In this document: one piece after another, positions 5,924-42,671 of the stretch
Position numbering within the stretch: position 1 is the stretch's first letter
Layout of the letters: each line of letters opens with the position of its first letter
Origin: a virus
IMG/VR virus record: IMGVR_UViG_3300045988_003762
Span: 1-42,671 of that record
Length of the DNA: 42,671 nt
Direction: 5' to 3' (one strand)
Notes under the pieces: model-generated
Database searches by the model: none
Seen by the model: the letters and a program-made list of their open reading frames with translations, nothing else
What the model was told of the DNA's origin: nothing
Position numbers and translations under genes: made by a program

Positions 5924-5955
5924 TTTTTCCACTTAAAAGTGGAATTTTCAAAATT
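5924..5955 (-). promoter_or_regulatory. Conserved 32-nt box, copy A (TTTTTCCACTTAAAAGTGGAATTTTCAAAATT on the plus strand)
   Basis: Identical to 10557..10588 except for the central 2 nt of the CCACTT-NN-AAGTGG palindrome. On the minus strand it reads TTGAAA-17 nt-AAAAAC. Confidence 0.6.
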
Positions 5956-13905: not shown

Positions 13906-13906
13906 A

Positions 13907-20732: not shown

Positions 20733-21592
20733 TTCTGTACCTCCACCCATTGACCGTTCTTAACGGTGTACCAAACGCCGGGTTTCAGCGTTTCACCATC
20801 CACGATGCCAGCAAGGATGGAGGCGATCTCTCCATTACCCCTACGCTCTACGCAGACAATAGCGTTGCCGATATCACCCATAACGAGGCCAAAAAAGCCG
20901 GTTGTCATAGCCACACAATATTTGCCGGTGGCGGATGCTGCGCCCCTCCAGCCGGTGGCAGATGCTGCGCCCCTCTCACCGGTGGCGGATGCTGCGCCCC
21001 TCTTACCGGTGGCAGATGCTGCGCCCCTCTCACCGGTGGCGGATGCTGCGCCACTCTCGCCGGTGGCAGATGCTGCGCCACTCCAGCCGGTGGCAGATGC
21101 TGCGCCCCTCCAGCCGGTGGCAGATGCTGCGCCACTCCAGCCGGTGGCAGATGCTGCGCCACTCTCGCCGGTGGCGGATGCTGCGCCACTCTCGCCGGTG
21201 GCAGATGCTGCGCCACTCCAGCCGGTGGCGTGGTTTTTCTTCTCGTCGTTCGCTTTCTTGATTGCGTTATCAAAACCGCACTGTGCCTTAACGTACTCCA
21301 CCTGTGCTTTGACCAGCCCCGGAATACCGATCTCCGCGCTCAACGTCAGCTTCTTGCCGACGCGCTTCGTGTCATTGCTACGCTTCTCACTGCTGGCATC
21401 CTCCAGCTCCGCTTCAAAATACCGGGAGCCATCACCGGGCACGTAGTAACCCAGAACATCCAATGGCATTTCGCAGGCATGCAGCCCATTTTTGCACAAT
21501 TCAATATCGCCATTGACCTCCGCCGTCTTGCCAAGCTCATACTGGAATCCACGGCATTTCATGTCTTTGTCTGTTGCCTTGTAAACCTTCAT
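20729..21592 (-). CDS. DUF7666-like protein with 11 tandem nonapeptide repeats (G-x-x-GAASAT)
   Basis: AAAGGAGTGGAG RBS. The N-terminus MKVYKATDKDMKCRGFQYELGKT...LHACEMPLDVLGYY matches a widespread uncharacterised phage/bacterial family, as I recall it. Confidence 0.7.
   Translation of the reverse strand: MKVYKATDKDMKCRGFQYELGKTAEVNGDIELCKNGLHACEMPLDVLGYYVPGDGSRYFEAELEDASSEKRSNDTKRVGKKLTLSAEIGIPGLVKAQVEYVKAQCGFDNAIKKANDEKKNHATGWSGAASATGESGAASATGESGAASATGWSGAASATGWRGAASATGWSGAASATGESGAASATGERGAASATGKRGAASATGERGAASATGWRGAASATGKYCVAMTTGFFGLVMGDIGNAIVCVERRGNGEIASILAGIVDGETLKPGVWYTVKNGQWVEVQK
20925..21221. repeat. 11 x 27-bp near-perfect tandem repeat (coding)
   Basis: Units of ccggtggc[a/g]gatgctgcgcc[c/a]ctc[c/t][c/t][a/c][g/a] were read consecutively, with a partial 12th unit after 21221. 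Confidence 0.95.
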
Positions 21593-21807
21593 CGTCTCCA
21601 CTCCTTTCCGATTTTCCTCCGCATTGCCTGCTCCAAGCTGCGCCACTTCCCGGCCTCTACAATGTTGGTATCCTGCACCGCCTTTGCCACGCGCTCATAC
21701 TCTGCGTTCCGCTGCGCTTCGTACCTTGCCCACGCCGCGCAGTTTCCGTGGCACCCGACTTCGCGCCGGTCGCACCGCACACCGCAGGGCGGCACAATCA
21801 TACTCAT
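21589..21807 (-). CDS. Hypothetical Cys-rich protein (72 aa)
   Basis: MSMIVPPCGVRCDRREVGCHGNCAAW... ATGA overlaps at both ends. Only the last 72 codons of the 223-aa track ORF are used. Confidence 0.6.
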   Translation of the reverse strand: MSMIVPPCGVRCDRREVGCHGNCAAWARYEAQRNAEYERVAKAVQDTNIVEAGKWRSLEQAMRRKIGKEWRR

Positions 21808-22301
21808 TCCCACTTCACCAGCGCTTTCACAACACCGGCCTGCGCCGCGTCCTCGTGGCTCATCAGCACGTCCACCGTGTAGCCGTACACACCGGTATCG
21901 GCTGCTATGTACTCCTTGCCTCCCAGCGTCACGGTGCTTCCCAGCGGAATGACGTCCGGATCTACCGCTACCGCCTCGCCGATGCGCACCCACCGACCGG
22001 AGGCCGTCAGCACCTTGCCGTCCCGCTGGTTCATGTGGGCGTAGGGTGTGCAGCAGGCGCAGTACCCGGTGATGTCGCATACGATCAGGTTCTCCGGTTC
22101 CTCGGCGACCGGCGCCGCTGTCATGACCGGATCCGCTGTGTGCCCCGGCTCGTCCTCCACCTCCGGCAGCGTCAGGCACCACGCCAGAAACGCCAGCAGC
22201 ATCACCCACAGGACGATTGCCGCCGCCCACAGCCGCCTGCACCATCTTCTGGTGCGGCATAGCCGGGAGTATTCCCGCGCCCGCCTGTTCCGCTCTCTCA
22301 T
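21804..22301 (-). CDS. Membrane-anchored 3D-domain (MltA/RlpA-like) cell-wall protein
   Basis: TM segment LWAAAIVLWVMLLAFLAWCL, then ITGYCACC...VAVDPDVIPLGSTV...YIAADTGVYGYTVDV, the 3D-domain pattern. The start at 22301 is supported by an ATGA overlap with the 29-aa ORF. Confidence 0.7.
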   Translation of the reverse strand: MRERNRRAREYSRLCRTRRWCRRLWAAAIVLWVMLLAFLAWCLTLPEVEDEPGHTADPVMTAAPVAEEPENLIVCDITGYCACCTPYAHMNQRDGKVLTASGRWVRIGEAVAVDPDVIPLGSTVTLGGKEYIAADTGVYGYTVDVLMSHEDAAQAGVVKALVKWE

Positions 22302-22387
22302 CGCCCCAGCGCCTCCACGCCCTTGACGATAGCCCAGCTCAGCCACGCCGCGCCGATAAACGCCAACGTCCATGCAAACCACGTCAT
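22298..22387 (-). CDS. Unlisted 29-aa hydrophobic peptide
   Basis: Hand translated: MTWFAWTLAFIGAAWLSWAIVKGVEALGR. GGAGGTG lies 4 nt upstream. ATGA overlaps at both ends. Confidence 0.55.
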   Translation of the reverse strand: MTWFAWTLAFIGAAWLSWAIVKGVEALGR

Positions 22388-22629
22388 TTCGCACCTCCGA
22401 TCATCATCAGTTTCTCCTCGTCCGTGAAGTGCAGCACGCTGTCCAGCGCCCACACCTCCTCGATCGACCACTTGGTCTTTCCGTTCATCCGGTAGGACAT
22501 CTGCGTCTCTGTCATGCCCACAGCCTGTCCCAGCTCCTTGTTGGTACGGATCAGCGCCCGTCCCATCGCACCGCGTACCGCGCTCTCAAACCCGCGCCTC
22601 CGCTTCGCCGTCTGCTGCGGCCTCAACAT
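22384..22629 (-). CDS. Small HTH DNA-binding protein (81 aa)
   Basis: AAGGAGGG RBS before MLRPQQTAKRRRG...ELGQAVGMTETQMSYRMNG. Confidence 0.7.
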   Translation of the reverse strand: MLRPQQTAKRRRGFESAVRGAMGRALIRTNKELGQAVGMTETQMSYRMNGKTKWSIEEVWALDSVLHFTDEEKLMMIGGAK

Positions 22630-22934
22630 TTCTTTCCCTCCTTGTGTGGTGTCATCCAGCCGGTACCGGTGTATCCGGTGAACTCGTGTCCCATGCCCTG
22701 CAAAGCACCCCATAGCCAGTACACGTTACATCCAAACACCTGTGCTATCCGCTTACACCTGATCCATGAGAGATATGTCGTGTCTCCCTGTTCGTATCGC
22801 CGATACGTTTCCTCGCTTATACTGGCTGCTCTGGCAACGCCTGCCGCCGTCAGGCCGGCTCTCTCACGCAGCTTGCGTAGGATGTTTTCAGCACTTCCGT
22901 CCTCCGATGTCGACATCTCCCGTGGCCTCAACAT
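22623..22934 (-). CDS. XRE-family HTH protein (103 aa)
   Basis: GAGAGGAAG RBS. LRKLRERAGLTAAGVARAASISEETYRRYEQG. Confidence 0.75.
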   Translation of the reverse strand: MLRPREMSTSEDGSAENILRKLRERAGLTAAGVARAASISEETYRRYEQGDTTYLSWIRCKRIAQVFGCNVYWLWGALQGMGHEFTGYTGTGWMTPHKEGKKC

Positions 22935-23125
22935 TTCTTCTTCCTCTCGATGATGGCATCCAGCGCATTTTCCATGCGCTTCTGGATGTCCTTCGGCTTC
23001 TTCACGCCGTTCAGGATCTGGCACACATACGCCTTTCCGACCCCCAGCTCTGCGCCCAGGTCGGAATAGGTAATGCGGTTGTTGTGCATCCTCCCGATCA
23101 GTCGTCCCGTCCATGCTTCCGGCAT
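22928..23125 (-). CDS. Cro-like small HTH protein (65 aa), first gene of the leftward early operon
   Basis: AAAGGAGAAAAG RBS. ITYSDLGAELGVGKAYVCQILNG. Divergent from the plus-strand lysogeny genes. Confidence 0.7.
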   Translation of the reverse strand: MPEAWTGRLIGRMHNNRITYSDLGAELGVGKAYVCQILNGVKKPKDIQKRMENALDAIIERKKKC

Positions 23126-23213
23126 TTCTTTTCTCCTTTCAAATTTATAGTTGCAAAAGTTTACTTTTCGTGATACCATAAAGTTGCCACACATCATGAA
23201 TCACGAGGTTCTT
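23126..23213. promoter_or_regulatory. Divergent intergenic region (probable lysis/lysogeny switch)
   Basis: 88 bp between divergent starts. Plus-strand TTGCAA (23151)-17 nt-TACCAT. Palindrome AAAGTTTACTTT at about 23157..23168. No clear minus-strand promoter was found. Confidence 0.45.
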
Positions 23214-23570
23214 ATGACCAAATACGATCTTCTTTCCGTCCTTCTGGACAACGGCGGCGAAATGGAACAGTCCCAACTGTTGAACAAATTCCTGGACAAC
23301 CAAGTTACCGCCGGGGGCTTTTTCCAAATGCTTCTGGATGACCGCTGCATCAAATGCGGCAAAGAGCCGTGGTCAACTGTCTCCATCACATTCAAAGGCA
23401 AAGCCCTTTACTCACAGTTTGATCAGGAAAAGAAAGACCACGACGAGGAACGCGCCTACATTCGAGCCGTAAATCACAGCTCTCGCAATATCGCAATAAT
23501 AGCCGCGTGCGCTGGTGTTATCGCCGCCGTCTTGTCTTTTATCCAACTCCTTATGCTCCTTCGGGGATAA
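23214..23570 (+). CDS. Hypothetical protein with a C-terminal TM anchor (118 aa)
   Basis: GAGG lies 6 nt before MTKYDLLSVLLDNGGEMEQSQLL (winged-helix-like). C-terminal IAIIAACAGVIAAVLSFIQLLMLL. Confidence 0.6.
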   Translation: MTKYDLLSVLLDNGGEMEQSQLLNKFLDNQVTAGGFFQMLLDDRCIKCGKEPWSTVSITFKGKALYSQFDQEKKDHDEERAYIRAVNHSSRNIAIIAACAGVIAAVLSFIQLLMLLRG

Positions 23571-23797
23571 CCGCTGCAGATGGCTCACCAGCACCCAAAT
23601 GTTCCCGATCAATACAACGGTGCAGTACAAAAAGGCTAATACCGCTCCTGCGCCCATTCTCTCACCACCTCTCTTTGCAAACGCTAACATATTCAACTTG
23701 CAAACATATAATAACGCTATCTAAGTAAACCGTCAAGCCAAAAGCGCAAACTAACGCAACTTTGGCTGATTGTACAAAATATGTCGAGGTAATTTGT

Positions 23798-24115
23798 ATG
23801 TTTTTTCAAAACTTCCTTCGCTTATGTAACAGCGTAAATAAAAAGCCGTCATCTGTTGCACTTGATTTGGGCATTGCAAAATCAACTGTTTCCCGTTGGA
23901 AAGAGGGTTCCGCGCCTCATCCGGCAACGCTTCAAAAACTGGCCGACTATTTTAACGTTCCTGTGGAATCCCTGACCGAAGAGCAAAAAGAAACCGCGCC
24001 CACCGTTACCGATGAGCGCGATTTTGAAATGCTGTCTTTGCTGTCCCGCCTTACGCCGGAGCAGAAGAAGATGCTTCTTCTCCAGATAAAAGGGCTTTTG
24101 CCGCCGCAAGAATAA
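23798..24115 (+). CDS. XRE-family HTH repressor-like protein (105 aa)
   Basis: KKPSSVALDLGIAKSTVSRWKEG is an HTH. Located in the plus-strand lysogeny module. Confidence 0.7.
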   Translation: MFFQNFLRLCNSVNKKPSSVALDLGIAKSTVSRWKEGSAPHPATLQKLADYFNVPVESLTEEQKETAPTVTDERDFEMLSLLSRLTPEQKKMLLLQIKGLLPPQE

Positions 24116-30540: not shown

Positions 30541-33500
30541 TTATTGGTTCCGCATTTTGCGAAGTTCCTGCTGTACCAGCGCCTTGTTGTAGTGGATGAT
30601 CTTTTTCCCCACGCCCATTGCGGAGAATAGATATTGCCGCTGATCGCTTGTCAATCCGCCAATGGAATAGATTTGCTCCATGACCAACAGCCCCTTGCTG
30701 TTTGCGATGGTCTCGCCGTTCTTGTCTTTCAGGGATTCCACGTCGCTTGTTTTCGCCCTTGCGATGACGTAATCGGTGGCGCTTATGCCCTTCTTTTCTC
30801 CGGCAACTGCCTTTGTCACCCACGATTCCGGCTCGTATTTGCTGACATTTGATTTTGCGATCTGGTCTGTAAGCGTATAGAGATCCTTTACGCACTGCAC
30901 CTTTTCCTCATTTGTCAGCTTTTTGTACTCGGAATCCCTTGTCAAAGCTGTAAGACGCTTATACGCACCTTGCCCCTTTTGCTGGGCATACTTCACGTAA
31001 TCGTCGGAACCGAGAGTGACCGACTCTCCATTGACAGTAAAGTTCTTGCTGGCTCTGCTGGGGAATACAGCTTCACCGGTGGCATTGTACAACCGCATGA
31101 GTTCCTTTTCCATCGGGCTTTCGTCGATCTTGGATGTATAGGCGGGATTGAGGAAGTTGTTGAACGCACGTTCTCCCGGCTTCCCCGTCAGCTCTGTTCT
31201 GCCCCATGCGTCGATGTATGGTATCTGGTTGTAATCCCAGCCGGGGATCCTCGCGCTGGCTTTGCCCACCGCATACTGCATATCAGGCGTGAGATACTTG
31301 TTGTTTTTGTTTGTGTACGTTGTGTAGCGCTTGCCCTCTCCGGTGCGTTCTGCCTGTCCCAGCAGAGTAGGGAACGCCTGTGTCAGGTAGCTGGTGGCGG
31401 CACTGGCAATCGCCTTGGGCAGCGCGGCGATACCATCACTCTTTGCATAACCTACAACGTCAAAGATGGCGTTCAGGCTTTGCAGACAGCTCATTTCGAG
31501 CAGCGGCTCCGACACATTGGAAATGGCTGTAAGCAGCTCGGAAAGCGTCAGAGATTCCTTTCCGCCGTTTGTCTCCTCCCACAGGTTTACACCGATAAAC
31601 AGCGGCAAGCACTCAGGCGCCAGCCAGTCCAGCGTAATACTTGTGCCGTCCGGCAGCTCCAGCGAGTACGTCTGATGGCCTTGCAAATCTTCAAACTCGC
31701 GCTTGTCGTCGTCATCGCCGCCGTGCCCACGCAAAAGCGCCTGCGACGCAAGATACACGCCAAGCCCCAGCAGGCCGGTGCCTGTAAGCCCGGCAGAAAT
31801 GGAATCAATGGCCTCTGCCCCTGTTTTCTTCCCGGTTCTCACGTCCCACAACGCTTGTTTAATGCCGTTCGCAAGCCCGAGAGGGCTGTACTCCACGCCG
31901 CGCATAAGAATGTTGGCGGGAGTTTTGCGGAACGGGAGTATGCCCTCGATAATGCCAGTGGCGATTTTCTCCACGCCGGTCTTGCTGCCGCGCCGCCTGC
32001 CGATCTCACTGACAAACTGCGAAAAGGCGTTGGTGTCGCGGTATGTGGCCTTTTGCGCTTCTTTAACGGCATACTTTCGCGCTTTTTCTATGCCCTTGCC
32101 CTCGGCGATCATCTCGGCGGTAATGCCATTCGCCTTGCAATACTGCGCCATAGCGTATGCGTAGTGCGGCTTGGAAAACCACATATCCTCCGTTTCAAGG
32201 GCGGCGCTGTTAAATCTTCTCGCTTTTTCCAGTCCCTGGCTTACCTGTTTAAGGCCCGGCATCTTGCTTTGGAAAATGACGCGCCCTTCCTCGATCGCTT
32301 TATTGGCGTTGGCAAACTCACTGTATTTCCCGCCGCCCATTGCCACGTCCTGAATTTTATCAAAGTCCGCAGCAGCAGCACTAAACAGCGCTCTCCCGCC
32401 TTTACCGGAGACAAATGCCTTGCTGCGGCTCAGCTTGCCTCCAGAAACTTTGTTCACGCCCGCTTCAATTCCTGTGGCGATGGCATTTTTTACCGCCACA
32501 ACAGGGGCAAACCCGGCGTTGCCGACAATGTTTCGGATGTGTGTTCGCGCATTGCCCAGCATAGCCAGATACCGCCACGCGTTCCATTTGTCAATGAACC
32601 GGGAGGGCATTTGACGGCCAATGTCGCGGTAGATGTCGGTCAGAACGTTATCCCGCTCCGTCTGATCTTTCGCCCGCAAAAACCGCTCCGCCAGCTCCCG
32701 ATCGATCTTGAGCTTAGGGGACTTTTTATCCCCGTACCGCTTGTTGATCTCCTCCTGCAAATTCTTTACGCTGCGCTGTACCTGATACAGCTGTGTCTCC
32801 GGGCTGAGCTTTTTCAATATGCGCGTGGCTTGCAGGGCTTGTGCTGCGCTGCGCTGGTGCTCCACCATATTGTTCAGTATGGTTAGCGCTGTAGCGGTGT
32901 CTCCACTGTTGGCTGCGTTGTTATACAGCGCCCAGCCCATCGCCGTGTTTTCCTTGGACACATTTCCTCTGCGCACGTTGTCTGTCCACGAGGTAAGCGC
33001 TTGCGCCCAGCCCACGTCCTTGATTTTTGTCTCTGCGTCAGAAATGGCCTGCTTGTCAGAATATGTCTCATAGGAGTATTCGCCGCGCAGGGCCAGCTCT
33101 TCGATGGTAGGGACGATCTCATCAGGCGTGGCGTTTGCTTCAAGTATCGTGCGTACCGTCTGCGACACCTTTTCCTTGTCACTGGTTTTGCGGGGGAGCC
33201 GTACCTGCCGTGTGGCATTTTCGCCCTCCGGGATTTTGCCGTATCTGCGAATATAGGTGTCGCGCAGATCCTCCAGCTCATCGGGGAGCCGCTGTGTCTC
33301 CCGCAGTTGAAATCTGGCACCCTCTACGCTGTTCACGGCATCCAGTCTGGCTTTTTCATCTCCGCTGGCATACTCGATCATCCGCACACCAGCGTTTTTC
33401 AACGCTGCCTTTACCTCCGCACTGGCATCGTTAGGGATAACCGCCGCCAACACTTCATCAAAACCTACGGCTCTTTGCGGCTTTGCCTCGAAATACCCGG

Positions 33501-36500
33501 TCGGCATATTGGAAATGTCTTCATACAGCTGCAGCACTTTTTCCGCCGTATCCGGTTTGATTTGCAGTGTGGGATATGTCCGCAGCTCTTTATCAATTCC
33601 CGCTACCGTCCGTTTTGTCCGCAGCGTCTCTACAATAGCCGACGCCGCATCGTCCGATGCGATAAACTCGTTCCTTGCTGCAGGATCCTTGATCTCGTTG
33701 GTCAGCTCCGCAAGGCGTTCAGAATACTTCTGCCGGATAGCGCTGTATTCTTCCTCGGTCATTTTCTGCAGCCGCCCGGAGTCGGCCTTGATCTCGTCAA
33801 TAGAGCCGTAATCCTTTGACGCAACACCCCAAATTGCCTGGCCACCAAAGAATGTGTTGGCACCCTTCTGATCGCCTTGCTTCATCGCCTTAACAATGTT
33901 TTCCAGCGTGATCTCATAGTGCGTTGCCGAAAAACTCCTGCGATTGCCGGAGGATGTATAGTAGTCTTTCCCGTTGTAAATGCCCTCGTTTTTTACAACA
34001 CCGTCAAACAGATTATCCAGCCATTGCTCGTACTCCTTCTGATTTACCTTGTCGCGGATAGCTTTGTTGGTGGCGGCCCTGTCCACTTCTTCCGTCACAG
34101 TTTCCGTGTTACCGGCCAGATATTTCCGCGTATCCAACATATACCGCATTTTTGCCGCAACGGTTTCTGCGTTTACCACATCGGCCGCATCCTTTGCAGG
34201 CAGCCCCAGCTTTTCGTAGTATTTTTGCAGTGCGGCGTTCAGCGCTTCGCCGTGTTCCTTGTGCCACAGTTTTCTTGCCGCAATAGGCGACTCGCCGCCC
34301 TTTGCGCGAAAATCGTTTACAGTGCTCTCCCCCAATTCGCGGATCAGGAACGATGCCATTTCCTGCTGGTTGTCATCCATGCGTGTGACTTCGCGCTTCA
34401 TTACGTTTTCTACCGCACCCCGCCCGGTATCTTCCAGATAAATGTTCATCACGCGCGGGTCGTCGCGCATTGAGCTGATGATTTTATCTACGCCGCCCTT
34501 CCGGTTCAGCTCGTCCTCCAGCGTGTTTGCCGCAGAATATAAGGGGTCTGCAAAGCTCCTGCCTTTCGACCGCTCCATACGGTAAAACAGGTCGTGGATC
34601 TTCTTGGCGGATTTCTCATTCACCTCGTACTCAATTTGCGGGGCAGTTGGTGTCCATGCGTCGTAACCGTACACCTTGTTGCTGCGGAACAGCTGCGGGT
34701 CAATGGTGTCCTTGCTGAACACAAACGAAATGTCGCCGTACTCGCCGTGGCCTTCGTCTGCCTTTACGATGGCAATACTAGGCATGGGAAGTCCGCCCAG
34801 TTTTGCGGCATCCAGCAGGTTCTTTTCTGTCAGGTTATGCAACGCCAGCAGGTTTTTTGTTTCCTCCACAGGTGCTTTCAGTGAGAACTTCGGCTTGACA
34901 TTTTCGCCATCGGTGGGTATACTATTAACAGAAGCATTCCCCAACAGAGCGCCGGAGTTTCCGGAAGAGCCAGCAATTCGGGGGGTGCTTCTTTCTTGCA
35001 TTTTCCCGATATTGTAGACAATGCTCCCATCCTTACCCAGCGCAACGGAAATGCGCGTTCGATAATACTTTCCATCGAAATCCATGAAATATGCCGTTCG
35101 ATAGTTCCAGCCGTCTTTTGCCATGTCCCCATGTCGTCCGGCTTCATCAAGAACAGTCTCCCCACCTCGTACAGATACCTTTATCAATTCGTCAATATGC
35201 GATGCGGCGTTTGCCTTTCGTTCAAAAGTTTCATCGCTCATTGTCTGTCCGTAATTATTATATCTGCTGCTGAGTTTTCCGGCTGACGTCCTCGTAAGAA
35301 TGAGGATGTCCCCATCTTCGGCTATCAAGCGCACATCTTCATTGTTCCGGATTTTTCCGTTGATGTAGTTCTCCAATTGTTCGCTCCATGCCACAGGATC
35401 GTTGCCAAATAGCACTTGCCTGTCCGCCTGGACATATTTCATGCCATTGGGGAACTGATTGATCTGATACTTTGCACCGTCGCCCTCACCGGCGGCGGTT
35501 TTTGTTTTCTCCGCCTGCCGCTTCGCCGCGTCAAATGCTTCCTGCCACTTCTGCGCCACCGCCTCCAGCTCCGCAAAGTCATTGCCGTAAGCCTCCTGCG
35601 CCGCCACATCTCTGGCCTTGCCGGTAAAGATGGACTTAACCTTTGCGATGAACTCCTTCAAACTGTCCAGCAGCTTTTGTGCCGCCGTGCGGTTGCGCTG
35701 GGAAAACTCACGGAACAGGTCAGGGTTTTCCATCATGTTCCCGGCGAAATCCGCCGCGATCTCGTCCATCACCTCGTCCTGCGTAAGCGTCACGCCGGAG
35801 CTCTCCGCCTTTTCCCTGTACCACTCCACGACCTCGGCCATTTCGTCAATGCCCTTTTCGCTCATACGGTTCTCCATAGCCGCCTGGCGGAATTTTCTGT
35901 ACTCGGCAGGGGAGAGGTCTTGCATACGGTGTGTGACCTCGTGCGCAGCTACGTTCAGATAGGGCTTGTTGCTGTCTACGGCAATCTGGATCAGGTTTTT
36001 ATCCCTGATGTACTGGCCGTTGGCCTGACCGCCCATAACGCTGTCCACGAACTCGATACGCACACCCAGCTTTTTGCCCATCGCGTTCAGCGTGGCCGCC
36101 GTGCGCTTGCTTTTGGCGATGACCGCGCGGGAATAGACGTTATCCGCCAGACCTGCGCCCGCAGTGGTGGTCACGCTCTTTACCTCCGCGTTCTCCCGTG
36201 CCACCTGTGTTGCCGCGTCTTCCAGCCCGGCATTATACGCCGCGTATCTCTGCTCCGGTGTCAGCATGGCCGCATACGCGCCCTTCGCCTTGCTTGCTTC
36301 AATGCCGTTCAGCCCGGCATTGTACACACTGGAGAATCCTGCGTACAGAGTGGGCACGTCATCTGCCGTCCGGCTCATCTCCTGATACGCTTTCTGCCCA
36401 GCTTCCAAAAAGCCGCCTGCGGGCTTCTGTGCGCGTTTATGCGTGACAGGGGTAGCCGTGGTGCCCTGCGTCTGCGCCTGCGTCGTGTCGCGGCTTGCAA

Positions 36501-37845
36501 GGGCGGCAATGTCACGTTTCAGCTGGCTGATGGGCTGCTGTGTGTTCAACTTCACGCCGGTGTTGGCCTCCAGCGTCTCCACGGCCACAGGATTCTTGGC
36601 AATAGCCGCCGCCTGATTGCCGGTGATGCTCTCGCCCCGCGTCACAGCGTCCACGGCCTGTGCCGCCTTGCTGTCCATCTCCGGCGCGGTGTTTTGCCGC
36701 ACGTCGCGGTTATACTGTGCTTTCGCCGCGTTGTATGCCGCGCGGTTGGCAAGGGTGTTAAGGCCTGTTACACCGCCGGACAGCAACCCGCCAACGATCG
36801 CACCGCCAGCAAACTCCTCCGCCGCTGTGCCGGGGTCGAAAATGGCATTTTCATTTACCCCAAAATACTGGTTTCCAGCATCGTATACAACATTTTGCAA
36901 AGTGCGGTCAATTACGCCTTGCAATACTTCTTCCTTGCCCTCGTCAACCATTGTGTCAACCAGAGTCCGCCATGCCGCCTGATTTGCTACGCGGTTCGGA
37001 AGATTTTGAATACCGCCGCTTATCTCAATTTCGGAGCCAAGCAATGCATTTCCCAGCGCATATAGCGTCGCTCGCTTCTCGTCCACGCCCTCAGCCTTTG
37101 CGTCGTTATAGCTGTGGGCATAAATTTGCGCTACGCTCGTCAGATAGTTCGGATCCTTCGCCCTCGTCTTTGCTATCTGTTGCATGGTTTGTACAATAGC
37201 CGGAGTAGACTTGCTGGCGGTTTGCGCCGCCATCTTCTCGGCGGTCATAGCCGCGCTTGCGCCGCTGGTTGCGTATGCCGCCGCCAAACTCGTGAGCGCT
37301 TCTACCGCAGAAGCAGCCAGTTCTTCACCTTTTGCCGCATACTTACCGCCCTTTGCTGTATTCTCTGCATATTTCTGCTGCAAATAGTTCTGATCGTTAG
37401 CTATGGCTTCATCAGCCATATTAAACAGCCCGCGCTCACTCATAGGAGCGACGTCTCCCAGCAGGGCATTCCACCCTTTGGCCGCCAGCCGCTCACCCTG
37501 TGCCAATATTGTGGTAGGCGTTCTCGCTATGGCCGTAAGACCCATGCCCACAGATTTAAGTGCGCCTTTCCCATAATTATACCCGCTGTTAGGCCGCTTG
37601 TCCGCTCCATAGTTCCCCGCGCCCAGCGCGGAGATGTCGCCCACCTCGCGCTTGGTGGTGATCTGCTGCTGCCGATTCTGCCGCGCTTCTTTGGTTTTTG
37701 CTTCCGCGTCGTAAACGGCTTTGCTCTGTGCCCCGCCTACATAAGTAGCTTTTACGCGCCCGTTTTTTTGCGCCGCCCCACCGGTGTATGTTACATCAAT
37801 ACCTCGTTCTTTTTTTGCGGCGTTTCCAACGTAGGTAACTTTCAT
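30541..37845 (-). CDS. Giant polyvalent virion/ejection-type protein (2434 aa) with a zincin HExxH module and a barnase/EndoU-like (PBECR-type) module
   Basis: Single uninterrupted ORF with a GGAGG RBS. AAHEVTHRM at ~35931..35945. ILILTRTSAGKL...HIDELIKVS...WNYRTAYFMDFDGKYYRTRISVALGKDGSIVYNIG (~34990..35330) resembles phage PBECR nuclease-like domains. A C-terminal hydrophobic segment is GLTGTGLLGLGVYLASQALL. Confidence 0.75.
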   Translation of the reverse strand: MKVTYVGNAAKKERGIDVTYTGGAAQKNGRVKATYVGGAQSKAVYDAEAKTKEARQNRQQQITTKREVGDISALGAGNYGADKRPNSGYNYGKGALKSVGMGLTAIARTPTTILAQGERLAAKGWNALLGDVAPMSERGLFNMADEAIANDQNYLQQKYAENTAKGGKYAAKGEELAASAVEALTSLAAAYATSGASAAMTAEKMAAQTASKSTPAIVQTMQQIAKTRAKDPNYLTSVAQIYAHSYNDAKAEGVDEKRATLYALGNALLGSEIEISGGIQNLPNRVANQAAWRTLVDTMVDEGKEEVLQGVIDRTLQNVVYDAGNQYFGVNENAIFDPGTAAEEFAGGAIVGGLLSGGVTGLNTLANRAAYNAAKAQYNRDVRQNTAPEMDSKAAQAVDAVTRGESITGNQAAAIAKNPVAVETLEANTGVKLNTQQPISQLKRDIAALASRDTTQAQTQGTTATPVTHKRAQKPAGGFLEAGQKAYQEMSRTADDVPTLYAGFSSVYNAGLNGIEASKAKGAYAAMLTPEQRYAAYNAGLEDAATQVARENAEVKSVTTTAGAGLADNVYSRAVIAKSKRTAATLNAMGKKLGVRIEFVDSVMGGQANGQYIRDKNLIQIAVDSNKPYLNVAAHEVTHRMQDLSPAEYRKFRQAAMENRMSEKGIDEMAEVVEWYREKAESSGVTLTQDEVMDEIAADFAGNMMENPDLFREFSQRNRTAAQKLLDSLKEFIAKVKSIFTGKARDVAAQEAYGNDFAELEAVAQKWQEAFDAAKRQAEKTKTAAGEGDGAKYQINQFPNGMKYVQADRQVLFGNDPVAWSEQLENYINGKIRNNEDVRLIAEDGDILILTRTSAGKLSSRYNNYGQTMSDETFERKANAASHIDELIKVSVRGGETVLDEAGRHGDMAKDGWNYRTAYFMDFDGKYYRTRISVALGKDGSIVYNIGKMQERSTPRIAGSSGNSGALLGNASVNSIPTDGENVKPKFSLKAPVEETKNLLALHNLTEKNLLDAAKLGGLPMPSIAIVKADEGHGEYGDISFVFSKDTIDPQLFRSNKVYGYDAWTPTAPQIEYEVNEKSAKKIHDLFYRMERSKGRSFADPLYSAANTLEDELNRKGGVDKIISSMRDDPRVMNIYLEDTGRGAVENVMKREVTRMDDNQQEMASFLIRELGESTVNDFRAKGGESPIAARKLWHKEHGEALNAALQKYYEKLGLPAKDAADVVNAETVAAKMRYMLDTRKYLAGNTETVTEEVDRAATNKAIRDKVNQKEYEQWLDNLFDGVVKNEGIYNGKDYYTSSGNRRSFSATHYEITLENIVKAMKQGDQKGANTFFGGQAIWGVASKDYGSIDEIKADSGRLQKMTEEEYSAIRQKYSERLAELTNEIKDPAARNEFIASDDAASAIVETLRTKRTVAGIDKELRTYPTLQIKPDTAEKVLQLYEDISNMPTGYFEAKPQRAVGFDEVLAAVIPNDASAEVKAALKNAGVRMIEYASGDEKARLDAVNSVEGARFQLRETQRLPDELEDLRDTYIRRYGKIPEGENATRQVRLPRKTSDKEKVSQTVRTILEANATPDEIVPTIEELALRGEYSYETYSDKQAISDAETKIKDVGWAQALTSWTDNVRRGNVSKENTAMGWALYNNAANSGDTATALTILNNMVEHQRSAAQALQATRILKKLSPETQLYQVQRSVKNLQEEINKRYGDKKSPKLKIDRELAERFLRAKDQTERDNVLTDIYRDIGRQMPSRFIDKWNAWRYLAMLGNARTHIRNIVGNAGFAPVVAVKNAIATGIEAGVNKVSGGKLSRSKAFVSGKGGRALFSAAAADFDKIQDVAMGGGKYSEFANANKAIEEGRVIFQSKMPGLKQVSQGLEKARRFNSAALETEDMWFSKPHYAYAMAQYCKANGITAEMIAEGKGIEKARKYAVKEAQKATYRDTNAFSQFVSEIGRRRGSKTGVEKIATGIIEGILPFRKTPANILMRGVEYSPLGLANGIKQALWDVRTGKKTGAEAIDSISAGLTGTGLLGLGVYLASQALLRGHGGDDDDKREFEDLQGHQTYSLELPDGTSITLDWLAPECLPLFIGVNLWEETNGGKESLTLSELLTAISNVSEPLLEMSCLQSLNAIFDVVGYAKSDGIAALPKAIASAATSYLTQAFPTLLGQAERTGEGKRYTTYTNKNNKYLTPDMQYAVGKASARIPGWDYNQIPYIDAWGRTELTGKPGERAFNNFLNPAYTSKIDESPMEKELMRLYNATGEAVFPSRASKNFTVNGESVTLGSDDYVKYAQQKGQGAYKRLTALTRDSEYKKLTNEEKVQCVKDLYTLTDQIAKSNVSKYEPESWVTKAVAGEKKGISATDYVIARAKTSDVESLKDKNGETIANSKGLLVMEQIYSIGGLTSDQRQYLFSAMGVGKKIIHYNKALVQQELRKMRNQ

Positions 37846-37853
37846 GCGCCCTC

Positions 37854-38828
37854 CTATTCGGTCACGTTAAATCCCATTTTACGGATTTCTTGCTTTTGCT
37901 TCGGCGTCAGGTCGTCCCACACGGATTCTACAAGCTGGCTTGCGCCAGACATGTTCCCGGCGGAAATTCTGCCGCTGATTGTGCGTTTGATGTCAGAAAA
38001 GGACGAGCTATAGGAATTGCCTGTTTCGCCTCCAGACGAGCTAACTGTTCCAATCACATTACTGTTGTACGTTTTCCCGCTGTTATAGCCCGTGCCGCCA
38101 TACGCGCTTCGCGCCGCGCTCTGTGCCGCCTTCAGCCTCGCGTTGTAGTCGCTCAGGCTGTCGCGGTACCGGTCGTACTCGTCGTTGGCCAGATTGCGGT
38201 ACAGGCTGGCGCTGTCCATCAGGTCGCCGCGCTCCTGAGAATACAGCTGCCGTGCCACCTCCTCCAGCTGCGCCATGTACTGGTTATACTGCTGCTGCGC
38301 CGCTGTGGTGGCGTAGGAGGACGCAAGTCCCCCCGTTCTGCTGGCCACCTGTCCCAGCACGTCCTGCATGCTCATTCTGCCGCTGGCGCCGTACCGGTCG
38401 GCCAATGCCTGATACTGGCTGCCCTTTGTCCAGTCGTCGTAGTTCATGCTGGTCAGCTGCCGCGCCAGGGCGTTCAGTTGATCCATGTATTCGCTGTTGT
38501 AGGTAGGCAGATCGCCGACGCTTGTGGGCATAGTCACTGTCTGCGTGCTTTTTGTGCTTGTGGAGGTAGACGGCGGCGTGTAGCTTGCTCCGCCGCCCTG
38601 AATGCTATCGGCCACGTCATACGGCGATTTGCCAGCCGCCAAACCGCCAGCCGCATTTTTGATGATGGTGTCGAGTATTTTTGACGCTCCGCTTGTAACG
38701 TTGCGCCCAGCGTTATTTACGCCGTCAAAAAACCTGTTTACGTTATTCGCCATCGAACTGCCGCTGTTCGATACGCCCGGTTTGCCGGAGCCAATAATGT
38801 CATCGTCATACTTCTTTCTTGTTGCCAT
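37854..38828 (-). CDS. Hypothetical virion protein (324 aa), Ser/Gly/Thr-rich ends
   Basis: ACGGAGGTG RBS. Packed between structural ORFs. Confidence 0.65.
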   Translation of the reverse strand: MATRKKYDDDIIGSGKPGVSNSGSSMANNVNRFFDGVNNAGRNVTSGASKILDTIIKNAAGGLAAGKSPYDVADSIQGGGASYTPPSTSTSTKSTQTVTMPTSVGDLPTYNSEYMDQLNALARQLTSMNYDDWTKGSQYQALADRYGASGRMSMQDVLGQVASRTGGLASSYATTAAQQQYNQYMAQLEEVARQLYSQERGDLMDSASLYRNLANDEYDRYRDSLSDYNARLKAAQSAARSAYGGTGYNSGKTYNSNVIGTVSSSGGETGNSYSSSFSDIKRTISGRISAGNMSGASQLVESVWDDLTPKQKQEIRKMGFNVTE

Positions 38829-38829
38829 G

Positions 38830-39207
38830 TTACACCTCCGTGTTTGCGTTCTCCAGCGCCGCCACTCTCTGTTCCAGCGCCGTGTAGTTATTCTCCAGCG
38901 TGGTCACTCTCCCGGCCAGCGCCGCGTAATCGTTACCCAGCGTGTTCACAGTTTGGCTCAGTGCCGATATACTGGCGCTCTGACTGTTAACCGTGCTTTG
39001 CAGCGCAGACACCGTATTTTGCAGCGCCGTCAGAAGAATGTACATTTCCGCGCTGGACACGCCCGCCTTGCTGACGTTCTTTGTCACGTTGCCCATCGCC
39101 CAGTCTGTGCGCTGGCACATGTATTTGATGTACTGCTCCACCATGCGCAGCGCCTCCTCCGGGTTGCCCTTCGGCAGCTCGTTCAGGCTCTCAGGGAAAA
39201 CGATCAT
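38830..39207 (-). CDS. Coiled-coil virion protein (125 aa; needle- or fibre-like)
   Basis: Heptad-like repeats LQNTVSALQSTVNSQSASISALSQTVNTLGNDYAALAGRVTTLENNYTALEQRVAALE. Confidence 0.6.
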   Translation of the reverse strand: MIVFPESLNELPKGNPEEALRMVEQYIKYMCQRTDWAMGNVTKNVSKAGVSSAEMYILLTALQNTVSALQSTVNSQSASISALSQTVNTLGNDYAALAGRVTTLENNYTALEQRVAALENANTEV

Positions 39208-40742
39208 TTCACATCACTCCCTATAATGAACTCGCGGGAAATACCCAAAATGGTACATTCTCCCTCACCCTCAAGCCGCAGCTCAAACTTGTCACACCGG
39301 TTTGTGGCAATGCGCATGGCGGTCACGTTGTAGTCCCGACCGGCCACTCTGCCGCACTCCTGCCATGACTTACCGTCAAATTGTGCCTTTGCGATCACGT
39401 GGCTGCCGGCAGGCAATTCAAGGCGCACCAGCAACTTGGAGTACGTTTTCTTCCCGTCAATTGTCTCGTACATGGGCGTGAACTGTGCCACCCACCGCTG
39501 ATCCTTCGGCGTCGGCGCTCCGTCCAGCAGGTACACATCGCCGCTGCCGTCCAGCATATAGAGATCTTTCCCGATCCGGGCGAAGTCCACAGCCTCCGTG
39601 CCGTCCTCCAGCACCCATATACCGGTCTTTGTCTCATATACCATCAGCTTGTGTGCTGCGCCGTCCTTAACGCTGAGATAGTAGCTGTCGCCGTCGTTGC
39701 CTGCTATCGCATCGGTGAATTCCTTTTCGCCAAAGTTGTCGCTGATCAGCGTGGGCGTTCCGCCGGAGTAGGCGTACACGCCGTGGTGTCCCTTGTAAAA
39801 CAGCGTATCGTTGATGACCTGCTGGCTTTTCTGGCACCCGTCCTGCAAGCCCTCCATCTCGTATGTGTACATGGCGTACTCGGCGGGATAGCTGCCCAGC
39901 ATCTTGTGCAGCTTCGTCTCCTTCCAGAACAGCACAGACGAACTCAGCTTGCAGCACCCGGTAAATTTTCCCTCTGTGCCCACCGCCAGCGTATACGCGT
40001 CTGTGCTCAAACCCTCATACACGTAAAAGTTGGTGGGATCGCCCAGGGCGCTGGCATAAATGGTCTGCGTATCGCTGTCACAGCCCCACAGCCGGTTCTC
40101 ACTCTCGCATATAAAGTCGAGGTCGGGAATCTTTCGCTCCAGCTTAATGGATGTGCTTGCTTCGTTCACCGCTACAAACGTGTTGTCCGCCACCGTAATC
40201 GTGTTGGAAGTGACCGCCTTAATGACAAAATCCTTGTTGTTCTCCGTCTTGGAGGTGCAGCCGGAAAGTGTCACGCCGTCACCCGCCTTGAACTTCGTGG
40301 ACAAGTCCGCCCAGCCGTTCACAGTTATTTTGTTTGTGGCAAACGTGGCCTTGCTGCCAGCCAGCTCCGCCGCCAGCGGCTTTACCTGCTGATCCTTAAT
40401 GTCCAGATACACCTTGTCCGGCCATATCACCATTTTGGTGTTGACCACGGCGAACTGCTTTTTGCCCGCCGTCACCGTGCCAACTACTTGCCCGTCGTAC
40501 AGAAGGGAAGTGCCCTGCACCACCACCAGCTTGTCCCACGACGTCAGCGCCGTGGCGTTCTGATACGCGGTCTGCTTTACCCGGCCTTTCCGCGTGGTGA
40601 TATACGGCCACCGCCTGGCGGACAGGTTCAGGCTGTCCCGCAGATCGCCGTCCGCCAGCTTATCAGACCAGTTGATTCCGCGCATCTGCACCGTTTCTAT
40701 TTTGTTCGGGCGCAGCGCATAGGGAAGCTCCGGCAAACGCAT
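39204..40742 (-). CDS. Tail/nozzle-type structural protein (512 aa, beta-rich)
   Basis: Large beta-rich ORF in the virion module. The start overlaps the upstream stop. The function is inferred from context only. Confidence 0.55.
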   Translation of the reverse strand: MRLPELPYALRPNKIETVQMRGINWSDKLADGDLRDSLNLSARRWPYITTRKGRVKQTAYQNATALTSWDKLVVVQGTSLLYDGQVVGTVTAGKKQFAVVNTKMVIWPDKVYLDIKDQQVKPLAAELAGSKATFATNKITVNGWADLSTKFKAGDGVTLSGCTSKTENNKDFVIKAVTSNTITVADNTFVAVNEASTSIKLERKIPDLDFICESENRLWGCDSDTQTIYASALGDPTNFYVYEGLSTDAYTLAVGTEGKFTGCCKLSSSVLFWKETKLHKMLGSYPAEYAMYTYEMEGLQDGCQKSQQVINDTLFYKGHHGVYAYSGGTPTLISDNFGEKEFTDAIAGNDGDSYYLSVKDGAAHKLMVYETKTGIWVLEDGTEAVDFARIGKDLYMLDGSGDVYLLDGAPTPKDQRWVAQFTPMYETIDGKKTYSKLLVRLELPAGSHVIAKAQFDGKSWQECGRVAGRDYNVTAMRIATNRCDKFELRLEGEGECTILGISREFIIGSDVK

Positions 40743-41089
40743 CACATCACCTGCACATTCCCGCTGTCATCGGGGCAATGATTTCTCCGCCACCAGCCCA
40801 GCGCCTCGTTGAGCGCCGCATCATACACCGCCTTGTCGTTGGCATACAGCGTCGTCTCGTTGTTGTAGTAGTCGATCTGGCCGCACAGATACACCACATA
40901 CACCCAGTCGTGGGGCGCAGGCAGCAGCAGCGTATCATCCTCCGCAGGCCAGTTGTACTCCGGCATCTCATGATCCACCCGCTCCGCAAGCTGCCGGTCA
41001 ATGCCTGTCACCCACTCCACTTTCTGGTCGTGGCTGATGGTATTCAGCCGCAATTCATCCGCCCTTGAAATGGCCTGTGTAACGGTCAT
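40742..41089 (-). CDS. Hypothetical virion protein (115 aa; adaptor-like)
   Basis: GGTGAGGG RBS. Context only. Confidence 0.5.
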   Translation of the reverse strand: MTVTQAISRADELRLNTISHDQKVEWVTGIDRQLAERVDHEMPEYNWPAEDDTLLLPAPHDWVYVVYLCGQIDYYNNETTLYANDKAVYDAALNEALGWWRRNHCPDDSGNVQVM

Positions 41090-41100: not shown

Positions 41101-41796
41101 TCACTTCACGATCTCCCACGTGCCGTTTTTCCCGTCCGCGCTCCGCGTCACCTTCACGGTGTACGTTTCGGTCACGCCGGGAGCCACCGGCGTCTCCGGC
41201 TCCGCAGGCTTTGTTTCCTCCACATACGGGATCCCGAAATACTCACACAGCCCCTTGGCCGCGCTCTCGGCGATCTCCTTCATGTGGGTGTGGAACCATG
41301 TGGCGTCATCCATGTTGTCGTGGAACACGTGCTCCTCGTAGAAGGAGACGGCTTTCGGCACACGCAGCTCGTACAGGTTGCTCCGCGCCACCAGCTTCAC
41401 CGTGCGCGGGTAAATTTGCTTCCGGTACTTCACCATGATCTCGCTCAGCTTCTTGCCGCGTTTTGAGTAGGTGTAGTACATAGGATGGCATCCCCGTGAG
41501 TTGCCCTTGCCGTCTGCGCTGCCGTTGGTATGGCTGACGTAATGCACGTCTGCGCCCCACGCGTCGCTCTCCCGCACGTTCTGCTTCATGATGGCATCGC
41601 CGTTGTCGCCGTTCATGGGGGTGCGCCGATAGCCGCGCTTGGTGGCAATGCCGCAGCGGTTCAGGATCGGCTCCAGAATGTCGATGTACTCGTTGTTCTC
41701 CAGTGCCTCATAGCACTGTTTCCCGTCCGGGCGGGGATATACACAGGGATTTGCCATGTGCATAGCCGGGGACAGGTAGACCTTCGGGGCGGCCAT
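41101..41796 (-). CDS. Endolysin, N-acetylmuramoyl-L-alanine amidase (Amidase_3-like)
   Basis: VYLSPAMH..., ADVHYVSHTNGS (SxHxN-type) and FYEEHVFHDN (E..FH.N) motifs. The gene follows the holin directly. Confidence 0.75.
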   Translation of the reverse strand: MAAPKVYLSPAMHMANPCVYPRPDGKQCYEALENNEYIDILEPILNRCGIATKRGYRRTPMNGDNGDAIMKQNVRESDAWGADVHYVSHTNGSADGKGNSRGCHPMYYTYSKRGKKLSEIMVKYRKQIYPRTVKLVARSNLYELRVPKAVSFYEEHVFHDNMDDATWFHTHMKEIAESAAKGLCEYFGIPYVEETKPAEPETPVAPGVTETYTVKVTRSADGKNGTWEIVK

Positions 41797-42087
41797 TTAC
41801 ATTGCCTCCTCGTCGTTGGTAGACTTCATCTGCTTAAACACCTGATTGACGCCAGTTGCGGTCAGTCCGGACATAATGCCCACGGCGACCGCCGTAAAGT
41901 AGTCCTCGGCGGGGAAATCCGGCATGTGAAATGCCAGCGCCAGTGCACCGATGACGCCGCCGCACACACCGCAAATAATGGGGATCCACTTGTTGTCCAG
42001 CGCCGCGGCCTTCACAATCATGCCGATCAGATAGCAGATGACGATGATAGCGGCAACAGTGGCCACTCCGATAGTGTTGATGTCCAT
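41797..42087 (-). CDS. Holin (Dp-1 / phage_holin_4-like)
   Basis: Multiple TM segments. KWIPIICGVCGGVIGAL...GIMSGLTATGVNQVFKQ matches the family pattern I recall. Confidence 0.8.
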   Translation of the reverse strand: MDINTIGVATVAAIIVICYLIGMIVKAAALDNKWIPIICGVCGGVIGALALAFHMPDFPAEDYFTAVAVGIMSGLTATGVNQVFKQMKSTNDEEAM

Positions 42088-42518: not shown

Positions 42519-42671
42519 TCAGGTGATCTCCTCGTTGACCGTGATGATGCTATCGCCGCTGATCTCCGCGCAGTTCAGGCGGAAATAGGCAGCATTCCCT
42601 AAGTCCACGCCAGACCAGTTCTTCACAGTGAACTGCGTCCAGATGCCGTTCTCATCCTTCACGCCCGACAG
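42519..42671 (-). CDS. Tail fibre 3' end (continuation of feature 1..2975; 42571..42671 duplicates 1..101)
   Basis: The same frame continues through the repeat: ...YFRLNCAEISGDSIITVNEEIT, with the stop TGA at 42521..42519. Confidence 0.8.
   Translation of the reverse strand: MSGVKDENGIWTQFTVKNWSGVDLGNAAYFRLNCAEISGDSIITVNEEIT
42571..42671. repeat. Terminal direct repeat, copy 2
   Basis: Identical to 1..101. Confidence 0.95.

Follow-up and report, generated by a model that had tools for sequence, protein, structure and literature searches.

The 42,671-nucleotide (nt) virus record IMGVR_UViG_3300045988_003762 of IMG/VR, analyzed at its full length and referred to here as the window, carries a single open reading frame (ORF) for a giant protein of 2,434 amino acids (aa). 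The window begins and ends with the same 101 nt, a direct repeat (1 to 101 and 42571 to 42671), and the sequence was therefore taken as a closed circular genome of 42,570 bp. An initial annotation made from the sequence alone had described the ORF as uninterrupted, as occupying about 17% of the genome, and as closing the late operon. The frame was indeed unbroken and made up 17.2% of the closed genome, on the minus strand, which the annotation had left unstated. The position assigned to it was essentially right, as the virion/lysis block has no further large gene beyond it; small genes come next, and then integrase and repressor genes on the plus strand. The Shine-Dalgarno sequence of the giant gene overlaps the stop codon of the preceding 324-aa gene, which couples the giant gene to it. 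Scanning for promoters and terminators near the giant gene gave counts not above those of shuffled sequence.

PHROG and Pfam scans identified genes on the minus strand for the small and large terminase subunits, portal, a Prp-like protease, scaffold, and major capsid protein. Past the window junction the order continues with a holin, an amidase, and proteins of 115, 513, 125 (coiled coil), and 324 aa before the giant gene is reached (Table 1). The block formed by the 115-aa, ∼513-aa, coiled-coil ∼125-aa, ∼324-aa, and giant genes was kept in relatives. PDB sequence searches found no relatives of the 513-aa and 115-aa proteins, and their nozzle-like and adaptor-like assignments therefore stay positional. 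The PHROG and Pfam scans detected no gene for a tail tube, a sheath, or a tape measure, and the sources label related proteins “Podoviridae sp.” Judged from this gene content, the phage is temperate and has no tail tube. None of the GenBank phage records was close to this genome. Relatives with the same gene order were integrated in bacterial contigs beside groES/groEL; at two such loci (L002 and L004, ∼21880 to 23970) the prophages adjoin the host groES/groEL operon.

Table 1. Positions of the giant gene, its modules and motifs, and the genes preceding it (nucleotide numbering of the window)
Feature	Residues (aa)	Nucleotides	Strand	Remarks
Giant ORF		30541..37845	−	2,434 aa plus stop codon; uninterrupted single frame, ATG start at 37845
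Shine-Dalgarno sequence GGAGG		37850..37854	−	4 nt 5′ of the ATG at 37845
Module A	1–61	37663..37845	−	Triple repeat with a 15-aa period; kept in relatives even where B is replaced
Module B	62–336	36838..37662	−	Ala/Gly-rich; replaced in some relatives; opens with conserved ISALGAGNYGADK
Module C	337–792	35470..36837	−	Conserved scaffold region with HExxH domain; Gly-rich hydrophobic stretch at aa 341–366
Predicted gluzincin-like metallopeptidase core	∼580–730	35656..36108	−	HExxH at aa 635–639, nt 35929–35943
Junction motif 1, YQIN	793–796	35458..35469	−	Preceded by AAGEGDGAK
Module D	793–986	34888..35469	−	Variable cassette, alpha+beta, with a four-stranded antiparallel sheet at its end (AlphaFold2 model)
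Junction motif 2, FSLK	987–990	34876..34887	−	BLAST breakpoint D/E
Module E1	987–1185	34291..34887	−	PBECR5, predicted RNase domain
Module E2	1186–1511	33313..34290	−	∼325 aa; always accompanies PBECR5; many invariant charged residues
Junction motif 3, FQLR	1512–1515	33301..33312	−	BLAST breakpoint E/F
Module F	1512–2434	30544..33312	−	923 aa, all-helical, C-terminal; family-defining carrier
Gly-rich, moderately hydrophobic helix of F	2015–2038	31732..31803	−	LTGTGLLGLGVYLASQALL; aligns with the equivalent helix of the pelagiphage internal virion protein D
324-aa protein		37854..38828	−	No family match, NCBIfam included; candidate small ejection/internal protein; position kept in relatives
125-aa coiled-coil protein		38830..39207	−	Coiled-coil Pfam matches only, plus weak PHROG tail matches; needle- or plug-like by inference
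513-aa virion protein		39204..40745	−	phrog_511 “internal virion protein,” E value, 7.7e−56; possibly nozzle-like
115-aa conserved protein		40742..41089	−	First virion gene after the lysis genes; called adaptor-like from its position alone

BLAST comparison with 16 relatives resolved the giant protein into a mosaic of six modules (A to F). Apart from this mosaic structure and its extreme length, nothing specific points to an assembly or gene-calling artifact, such as a chimeric assembly or several genes run together. The same protein was found, identical, on three public contigs from different sources, its collinear relatives (1,900 to 2,730 aa) number in the hundreds, the unbroken frame starts behind a canonical Shine-Dalgarno site, and the joints of the mosaic coincide with a conserved in-frame peptide motif; the chance of an artifact is therefore negligible. 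Long regions had been said to match nothing recognizable, and this was borne out: Pfam covers ∼200 of the 2,434 residues, and NCBIfam and PDB sequence searches returned nothing. Against PHROGs, the protein matched only an unnamed giant family (aa 381 to 1515).

Module F and the internal virion proteins

A search with module F against 1.84 billion representatives returned 7,037 clusters at 50% identity, 3,443 of them at an E value of ≤1e−30. The module was nearly always C-terminal, in proteins of 1,100 to 3,970 aa, and was 95 to 98% identical in most of the 16 relatives compared by BLAST. It had no match in Pfam, PHROG, NCBIfam, or PDB. Genomes carrying F came mostly from gut Oscillospiraceae and other Clostridia (Lawsonibacter, Pseudoflavonifractor, Gemmiger, Yeguia, and Ligaoa).

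An AlphaFold2 (AF2) model of F, built from a 54-sequence alignment, consisted almost entirely of helices, with a predicted local distance difference test score (pLDDT) of 81.2 and a predicted template modeling score (pTM) of 0.67. Foldseek searches of PDB with this model, and with a model of aa 470 to 986, gave no match with an E value of <0.07. Against BFVD, the F model matched gut-phage polyvalent giants and five proteins annotated as “Internal virion protein,” the latter with a probability of 1.00 and E values of 1e−11 to 3e−8. The five proteins were from Pelagibacter phage Eyrgjafa (E value, 1e−11), Synechococcus phages S-RIP1, S-CBP3, and S-CBP2, and cyanophage NATL2A-133.

Profile comparison led to the same group of proteins. 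In hhalign, the F alignment matched gp36 of Pelagibacter phage HTVC041P, annotated as IVP-D (internal virion protein D), with a probability of 96.9% and an E value of 1.4e−10. The alignment spans the most conserved F motifs (ALE.ED.WF and LPFRKTPANIL, the latter of the form LPF(R/T)(K/R)TP(A/V)N) together with the Gly-rich helix, and a local hmmsearch of F against gp36 gave 42.7 bits in two collinear segments. Three smaller genes separate the gp36 gene from those for tail tubular proteins A and B, and the tail fiber gene comes after it, which is the slot of T7 gp16. By tblastn, Syn5 gp45 belongs to the family of gp36 (E value, 1e−20); a review gives gp45 as part of the Syn5 capsid core (PMC5850374). 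Alignment of F with Syn5 gp45 by hhalign was collinear and modest (probability, 51%; E value, 1.5e−4), and hmmsearch with the F profile gave no match to Syn5 gp45. Comparison of profiles and of predicted folds shows F to be related to the internal virion proteins that marine T7-like phages encode at the gp16 position.

Profile homology to the marine IVP-D/Syn5 gp45 family (phrog_6651) covers F residues ∼250 to 553, including LPFxKTPxN and the Gly-rich helix, and the fold similarity runs across ∼900 columns, whereas identities are 13 to 26% and TM-scores 0.30 to 0.43. The marine proteins also differ in size (770 to 1,415 aa), lack polyvalent N-terminal cargo, and come from lytic T7-like phages of Gram-negative hosts.

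Module F was 97 to 98% identical between the window (30544 to 33312) and a relative at locus L059 (10001 to 15841), whereas the Prp, scaffold, and capsid proteins of that relative (L059, 1 to 2714) were only 77 to 80% identical to those of the window. From this difference, parts of the giant gene appear to have been exchanged laterally between phage lineages in recent times. Stand-alone F-only genes of ∼900 aa also exist (L066, 4299 to 10703; L065, 3249 to 5942). One F-only gene lies, together with genes for an integrase and an HTH_17 protein and two small genes, in a small block that adjoins bacterial housekeeping genes and may be what remains of a prophage or else a satellite-like element. 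In a large subgroup of the family (P0098-type), F is replaced by a 1,209-aa C-terminal module that likewise starts with FSLK (L001, 14555 to 18181). This module matches the C-terminal part of phrog_22978, has no detectable similarity to F, and may be an analogous carrier.

Conserved and exchangeable modules of the giant protein

Module C was found together with F in most of the family members retrieved. The HExxH motif noted in the initial annotation (AAHEVTHRM) is present in this module, and in 165 unique homologs with identities down to 19%, residues H635, E636, H639, Y649, and E695 were 100% conserved and R640 nearly so. Such absolute conservation argues for catalysis, and a HExxH...E gluzincin signature has been described for the metallopeptidase (MPTase) hub of polyvalent proteins (PMC5512222). 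The AF2 model of aa 470 to 986 (pLDDT, 76.6) shows a zincin-like order of elements, with a helix (model residues 111 to 124), three strands (127 to 131, 141 to 144, and 149 to 153), the HExxH helix (159 to 175), and a Glu-bearing helix (220 to 237). No zincin model recurred across 23 diverse relatives, in which the only zincin-like match was eCIS_core in one member, and a PDB profile search with the C/D region found no match. On conservation and modeled topology, the domain is probably a zinc peptidase of a clade not covered by existing models.

Two cargo modules lie between C and F. Module D gave a subthreshold LPD3 signal (PF18798; E value, 3.5e−4; 21.2 bits versus a cutoff of 27), which was also all that a Pfam search of nine tiles of the giant protein at an E value of ≤10 added. 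PHROG searches with D found no match, and the Foldseek match of its model to 6cp9, the CdiA-CT(Kp342) toxin-immunity complex, was weak and nonsignificant (E value, 0.43; TMt, 0.43 to 0.47). In relatives, D is replaced in some cases, and MuF_C or bona fide LPD3 cassettes are found at its position.

The segment that the initial annotation had likened to PBECR modules matched Pfam PBECR5 (PF18814) at aa 986 to 1185 with an E value of 8.5e−59 (199.8 bits versus a cutoff of 25; profile positions 3 to 198 of 239). Of the two enzyme-like segments named there, PBECR5 thus has a highly significant match and the HExxH domain none. Within PBECR5, H1003/N1004 (in ALHN), PSIA (aa 1022 to 1025), K1028, and H1033 were at least 97% conserved in 58 unique homologs with identities down to 28%. 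H1003 corresponds to the conserved His in the N-terminal helix of the BECR active-site configuration (Iyer et al. 2017). Endoribonuclease activity is a prediction here, as it is for the whole family. Module E (aa 987 to 1511) is absent or replaced in many relatives. The unit at aa 997 to 1513 was also identified in the isolated Acinetobacter phage Ab9 and in Bacteroides phage BF1-TP2. In Ab9, it lies at 25% identity inside a 2,839-aa protein whose gene follows those annotated as tail protein, internal virion protein, internal virion protein, and 773-aa endolysin, corresponding to the gp16 slot. Comparison of F with the Ab9 giant protein's C terminus detected no similarity.

The peptide [FY][SQ][LMI][KRN] occurs exactly three times in the giant protein (aa 793, 987, and 1512), each time at a breakpoint defined by BLAST. 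By our own arithmetic, the chance that three random positions would all fall within 10 residues of three given breakpoints is ∼4e−6. In 120 relatives, the joints read EGDG(A/V)(K/R)(Y/F)(S/Q)(I/L)(K/R), ENV..F(S/Q)L(K/R), and R(F/Y)Q(L/M)R, and in the wider family a variant, (F/Y)SR(S/K)(D/E), stands before F. The motif was located within 25 residues of the F start in 195 of 393 proteins, versus ∼4% expected from its overall density, the 393 proteins being related and the counts not independent events. Depletion of the motif inside F does not add independent evidence, because the F sequences are homologous. Within the giant gene, no long DNA repeats were found at the joints beyond matches of chance size.

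Splitting the 120 close relatives at the motif gave at least 13 cassette types in at least 17 architectures. The types include MuF_C, ART-PolyVal, LPD3, a second HExxH cassette, and several without an assigned family, and PBECR3 and ADPrib_exo_Tox are also among the domains added in relatives. Swaps of cassettes occurred in backgrounds otherwise 95 to 98% identical. The swapped cassettes are candidate effectors, which would make them the variable weapons of the family, and their polymorphism may be read as the signature of an arms race.

The Prp-like cysteine protease ORF of the phage lies between the portal and scaffold genes (window positions 5948 to 6226, 4817 to 5764, and 3536 to 4798, all on the minus strand). 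The start of the scaffold protein (MYLYDMTLCLF↓EGGDG) and a stretch near the N terminus of the capsid protein (PVVLNLF↓DG) look like Prp-type leader cleavage sites. As a candidate for cutting the junctions this protease was given low weight; the leaders (L-x-L-F↓(D/E)G) and the junctions (G-A-(K/R)-(F/Y)↓(S/Q)) have only an aromatic P1 residue in common.

At the N terminus, the triple repeat reported in the initial annotation was recovered with its copies spaced exactly 15 aa apart (starts at aa 2, 17, and 32), and the BLOSUM62 score of its best 9-mer pair (32) was reached by 0.2% of 2,000 shuffles. To place this in the family, 138 full-length proteins selected solely for carrying F were surveyed. 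A 9-mer was repeated within the first 90 residues (BLOSUM62 score of ≥28) in 53% of them, compared with 2.2% of internal windows and 2.9% of shuffled N termini. The first copy usually starts at residues 1 to 10 and the second 20 to 55 residues further on, and the peptides are entirely different in sequence between lineages. The duplicated peptide resembles a short linear motif that is bivalent or trivalent, and it may serve as a procapsid loading or docking signal. Module B, which follows, had no Pfam or PHROG match.

In the 324-aa protein encoded upstream, the N-terminal ∼95 aa covaried with the type of N-terminal peptide in the giant protein, while the remainder was conserved, an anecdotal observation from four genomes. 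“RKKYDD” in the 324-aa protein pairs with the “VTYVG” type in the window and at L001 (8919 to 9992), and L059 (9026 to 9985) and L060 (6028 to 6816) each differ.

A purely structural giant, be it a tail needle, a tape-measure-like ruler, or an internal scaffold, would deliver no effector, and its enzyme-like motifs would be vestigial. It would fit the 92% of the protein that lacks a significant enzyme-family match, the helical, Ala/Gly-rich character of F, B, and C, which is like that of tape-measure or core proteins, and the absence of a significant fold match for the HExxH domain. The five residues invariant down to 19% identity and the signature His retained in PBECR5 speak for function instead, rapid swapping of ART, MuF_C, LPD3, and second HExxH cassettes in nearly identical backgrounds would be unexpected for a ruler or scaffold, and the protein has no repeats of a structural type: Pfam and PHROG gave no tape-measure or fiber profiles or structural repeats, and its internal DNA repeats were of chance size only. 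A solely structural role is thus very improbable.

Several further genes of the phage were identified. A fiber-like ORF of ∼1,000 aa on the minus strand crosses the window ends, running from ∼2975 down to 1 and on from 42671 to ∼42430, and is missing from the ORF list of the window because it spans the junction. Its N terminus is 58% identical to the product of a 330-aa gene that follows the capsid gene in a relative, its C-terminal part contains GDxxxG, GNHDD, and GHEH motifs and is metallophosphoesterase-like by eye, and an NCBIfam search with it found no match. The holin (Hol44 family) and Amidase_3 endolysin genes (41101 to 42087, minus strand) are located inside the virion block, between the fiber genes and the block ending in the giant gene; relatives share this internal lysis position with different holin and lysin domains (Amidase_2 and CHAP). 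A 305-aa collagen-like, tail-fiber-like ORF (20729 to 21646, minus strand) lies in the early/replication region, far from the virion genes. Just upstream of the terminase genes are genes for a 573-aa DNA methyltransferase (12196 to 13917, minus strand) and a protein resembling phosphoadenosine phosphosulfate (PAPS) reductase (14184 to 15257, minus strand), which may have antirestriction or DNA-modification functions.

Proposed delivery of polyvalent cargo

Taken together, these findings make the giant protein a likely IVP-D-like ejection protein by which polyvalent cargo enters the cell, with a zincin-like domain that frees the cassettes, probably at the junction motifs. It would be built into the procapsid near the portal via F, to which the duplicated N-terminal peptide may contribute. 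At infection, it would exit through the short tail with or just before the DNA, and F would help to form a conduit through the Gram-positive envelope; the Gly-rich amphipathic helices conserved in F are candidates for contact with the membrane. The N-terminal domains would then reach the cytoplasm, where the PBECR5 unit, and possibly cassette D, could cut host or defense RNAs. The HExxH...E domain, acting as a zinc protease, would free the cassettes, and the most likely cut sites would be the [FY][SQ][LMI][KRN] junctions that delimit every cassette. Packaging and ejection are inferred here from kinship and gene position, and the protease and RNase activities are likewise predicted. Taken by itself, release of the cassettes by such a processing step is putative and is put forward tentatively.

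The initial annotation had proposed a multidomain protein of a short-tailed phage that is ejected with the DNA and acts on the host. The kinship of F with IVP-D, the position of the gene, the parallel in Ab9, and PBECR5 are consistent with this, whereas the place given to the HExxH domain among the weapons appears to need revision; by analogy with the systems of Iyer et al. (2017), this domain is a conserved scaffold element and is more likely to serve as a processing protease than as a variable weapon. The statement that most residues have no assignable function also has to be narrowed, as ∼38% of these residues belong to the ejection-protein body and not to effectors.

A number of observations weigh against delivery by an IVP-D-like body. 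Comparison of F with T7 gp16, T7 gp15, and the C terminus of N4 gp50 gave hhalign probabilities of <1% and no hmmsearch match, and because no T7, N4, or solved-structure match was found, F can be linked to experimentally defined core proteins only by way of intermediates. Annotation of the marine phage proteins as “IVP-D” itself rests largely on synteny, and no isolated phage with F at an E value of ≤1e−5 was found in a collection of 50,697 phage records. The hydrophobic C-terminal helices of the initial annotation hold up as Gly-rich, moderately hydrophobic segments (aa 1773 to 1797, 2015 to 2038, and 2070 to 2088), yet their Kyte-Doolittle peaks in 19-residue windows (1.24 to 1.36) stay under the usual transmembrane threshold of 1.6. 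Separation of the fiber genes from the giant-gene block by the lysis cassette is unusual for a purely structural operon. For the HExxH domain, no Pfam, PDB, or Foldseek match reached significance, with PprI (8sln; E value, 0.22) the closest, and the junction motif is not present in the Ab9 giant protein. With regard to the first of these points, IVP-C and IVP-D homologs are notoriously hard to connect (Hardies et al., PMC4819975).

The location of the giant gene downstream of the holin and amidase genes would also suit a late-expressed, unpackaged polymorphic toxin or exclusion factor, acting in the producing cell or released by lysis against competitors or superinfecting phages, with F as a membrane or translocation module. 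Its cassette polymorphism and demarcating motif resemble polymorphic toxin systems, ART and RNase-type cassettes are typical toxin domains, and F-only genes were found outside complete prophages. However, by both profile and fold F is akin to internal virion proteins, and translational coupling ties the giant gene to a conserved block in which the phrog_511 “internal virion protein” and the needle-like coiled coil are encoded. Neither a signal peptide nor a small immunity-like gene nor a secretion gene was seen beside the cassettes, and the PBECR5 unit occupies the gp16 slot of an isolated podovirus (Ab9). A toxin of this kind is therefore an unlikely explanation.

By domain content and context, the giant protein is best classed with the phage-type polyvalent proteins (Iyer et al. 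2017). It combines at least two conflict- or effector-type domains (PBECR5, the invariant HExxH...E domain, and the weak LPD3-like cassette) and is encoded by a phage beside virion genes, here those for terminase, portal, and capsid together with integrase and lysis genes. Like the polyvalent proteins described previously (PMC5512222), it joins several conflict-type domains in one giant polypeptide encoded among virion genes, has a zincin-like HExxH domain as its constant hub, occurs in a family with PBECR, MuF_C, ART-PolyVal, and LPD3 modules, and has extensively mosaic orthologs, as in Helicobacter jhp1044. Injection followed by processing has been proposed for polyvalent proteins with an MPTase hub (PMC5512222). 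The differences are a constant 923-aa module, F, that lies outside the Pfam LPD/polyvalent models, and a HExxH domain that Pfam metallopeptidase models do not recognize. By text search, the junction motif and duplicated N-terminal peptide are also not in that paper, in whose main text the strings “internal virion” and “linker” were not found and “cleavage site” occurs solely in a reference title.

In principle, and by analogy, the giant protein is also an IVP-D with cargo (Hardies et al. 2016), as it is large, helical, and encoded after the tail genes of a podovirus. Homologs of IVP-D host domains destined for the cytoplasm, e.g., the N4 virion RNA polymerase (vRNAP) and the H66 gp60 methylase (PMC4819975). 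Like N4 gp50 vRNAP and gp60 of Pseudomonas phage H66, the giant protein fuses a large helical ejection body to host-acting enzymes, with a gene placed after the tail genes and a body that diverges rapidly (PMC4819975). In those proteins the cargo is one fixed enzyme, whereas here it is N-terminal, made up of several cassettes, and interchangeable. The giant protein further differs in that F lacks detectable similarity to the T7 and N4 proteins and in that the hosts are Gram-positive gut Clostridia.

Two groups of toxins offer further parallels. MuF polymorphic toxins of temperate Firmicutes phages, reportedly treated by Jamet et al. in BMC Biol in 2017, are said to combine a virion-associated carrier with variable toxin domains. 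MuF_C and PBECR cassettes occur in relatives of the giant protein, and Pfam searches of the whole giant protein and of its tiles found no Phage_Mu_F head-morphogenesis domain. The arrangement also differs from that of MuF toxins, the carrier here being C-terminal and IVP-like and the cargo N-terminal or internal. In CdiA (VENN) and Rhs (PxxxxDPxGL) proteins, a short conserved peptide marks the point at which toxin modules are exchanged. The junction motif similarly stands at the exchange points of variable modules; the giant protein differs from CdiA and Rhs in having several joints per protein, internal cassettes, no accompanying immunity genes, and a proposed delivery by the virion.

The idea of injecting enzymes with phage DNA is already known (Iyer 2017; Hardies 2016). 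Within the libraries and text searches used, what is new is the recognition that a ∼920-aa domain lacking annotation, with more than 7,000 clusters, is a relative of internal virion proteins, along with the junction motif of the cassettes and the family-wide duplication of the N-terminal peptide. For prophages of gut Oscillospiraceae and other Clostridia this identifies an annotation gap, as the ∼920-aa domain has no Pfam, PHROG, or NCBIfam model.

A more far-reaching “cassette code” can be envisaged, in which the flanking peptide [FY][SQ][LMIR][KRS] would be both the recombination joint at which phages exchange modules and the site cut by the protein's own zinc protease, the duplicated N-terminal peptide would load the giant protein into the procapsid, and one injected polypeptide would be diced into lineage-specific enzymes within the host. 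This scheme is speculative and rather unlikely in full; if true, thousands of prophages of gut Clostridia would share a programmable effector-delivery chassis.

Polyvalent proteins have been predicted to be first-strike weapons of phages, and how they enter the capsid and become active has rarely been addressed. This locus couples polyvalent cargo to a recognizable ejection-protein body, which would provide a physical route of delivery, and the junction motif and duplicated N-terminal peptide could account for processing and packaging. The swappable cassettes (RNase-like, ADP-ribosyltransferase, and unassigned folds) represent a natural library of candidate antidefense or host-takeover enzymes, and the chassis that bears them could serve the engineering of phage-delivered proteins.

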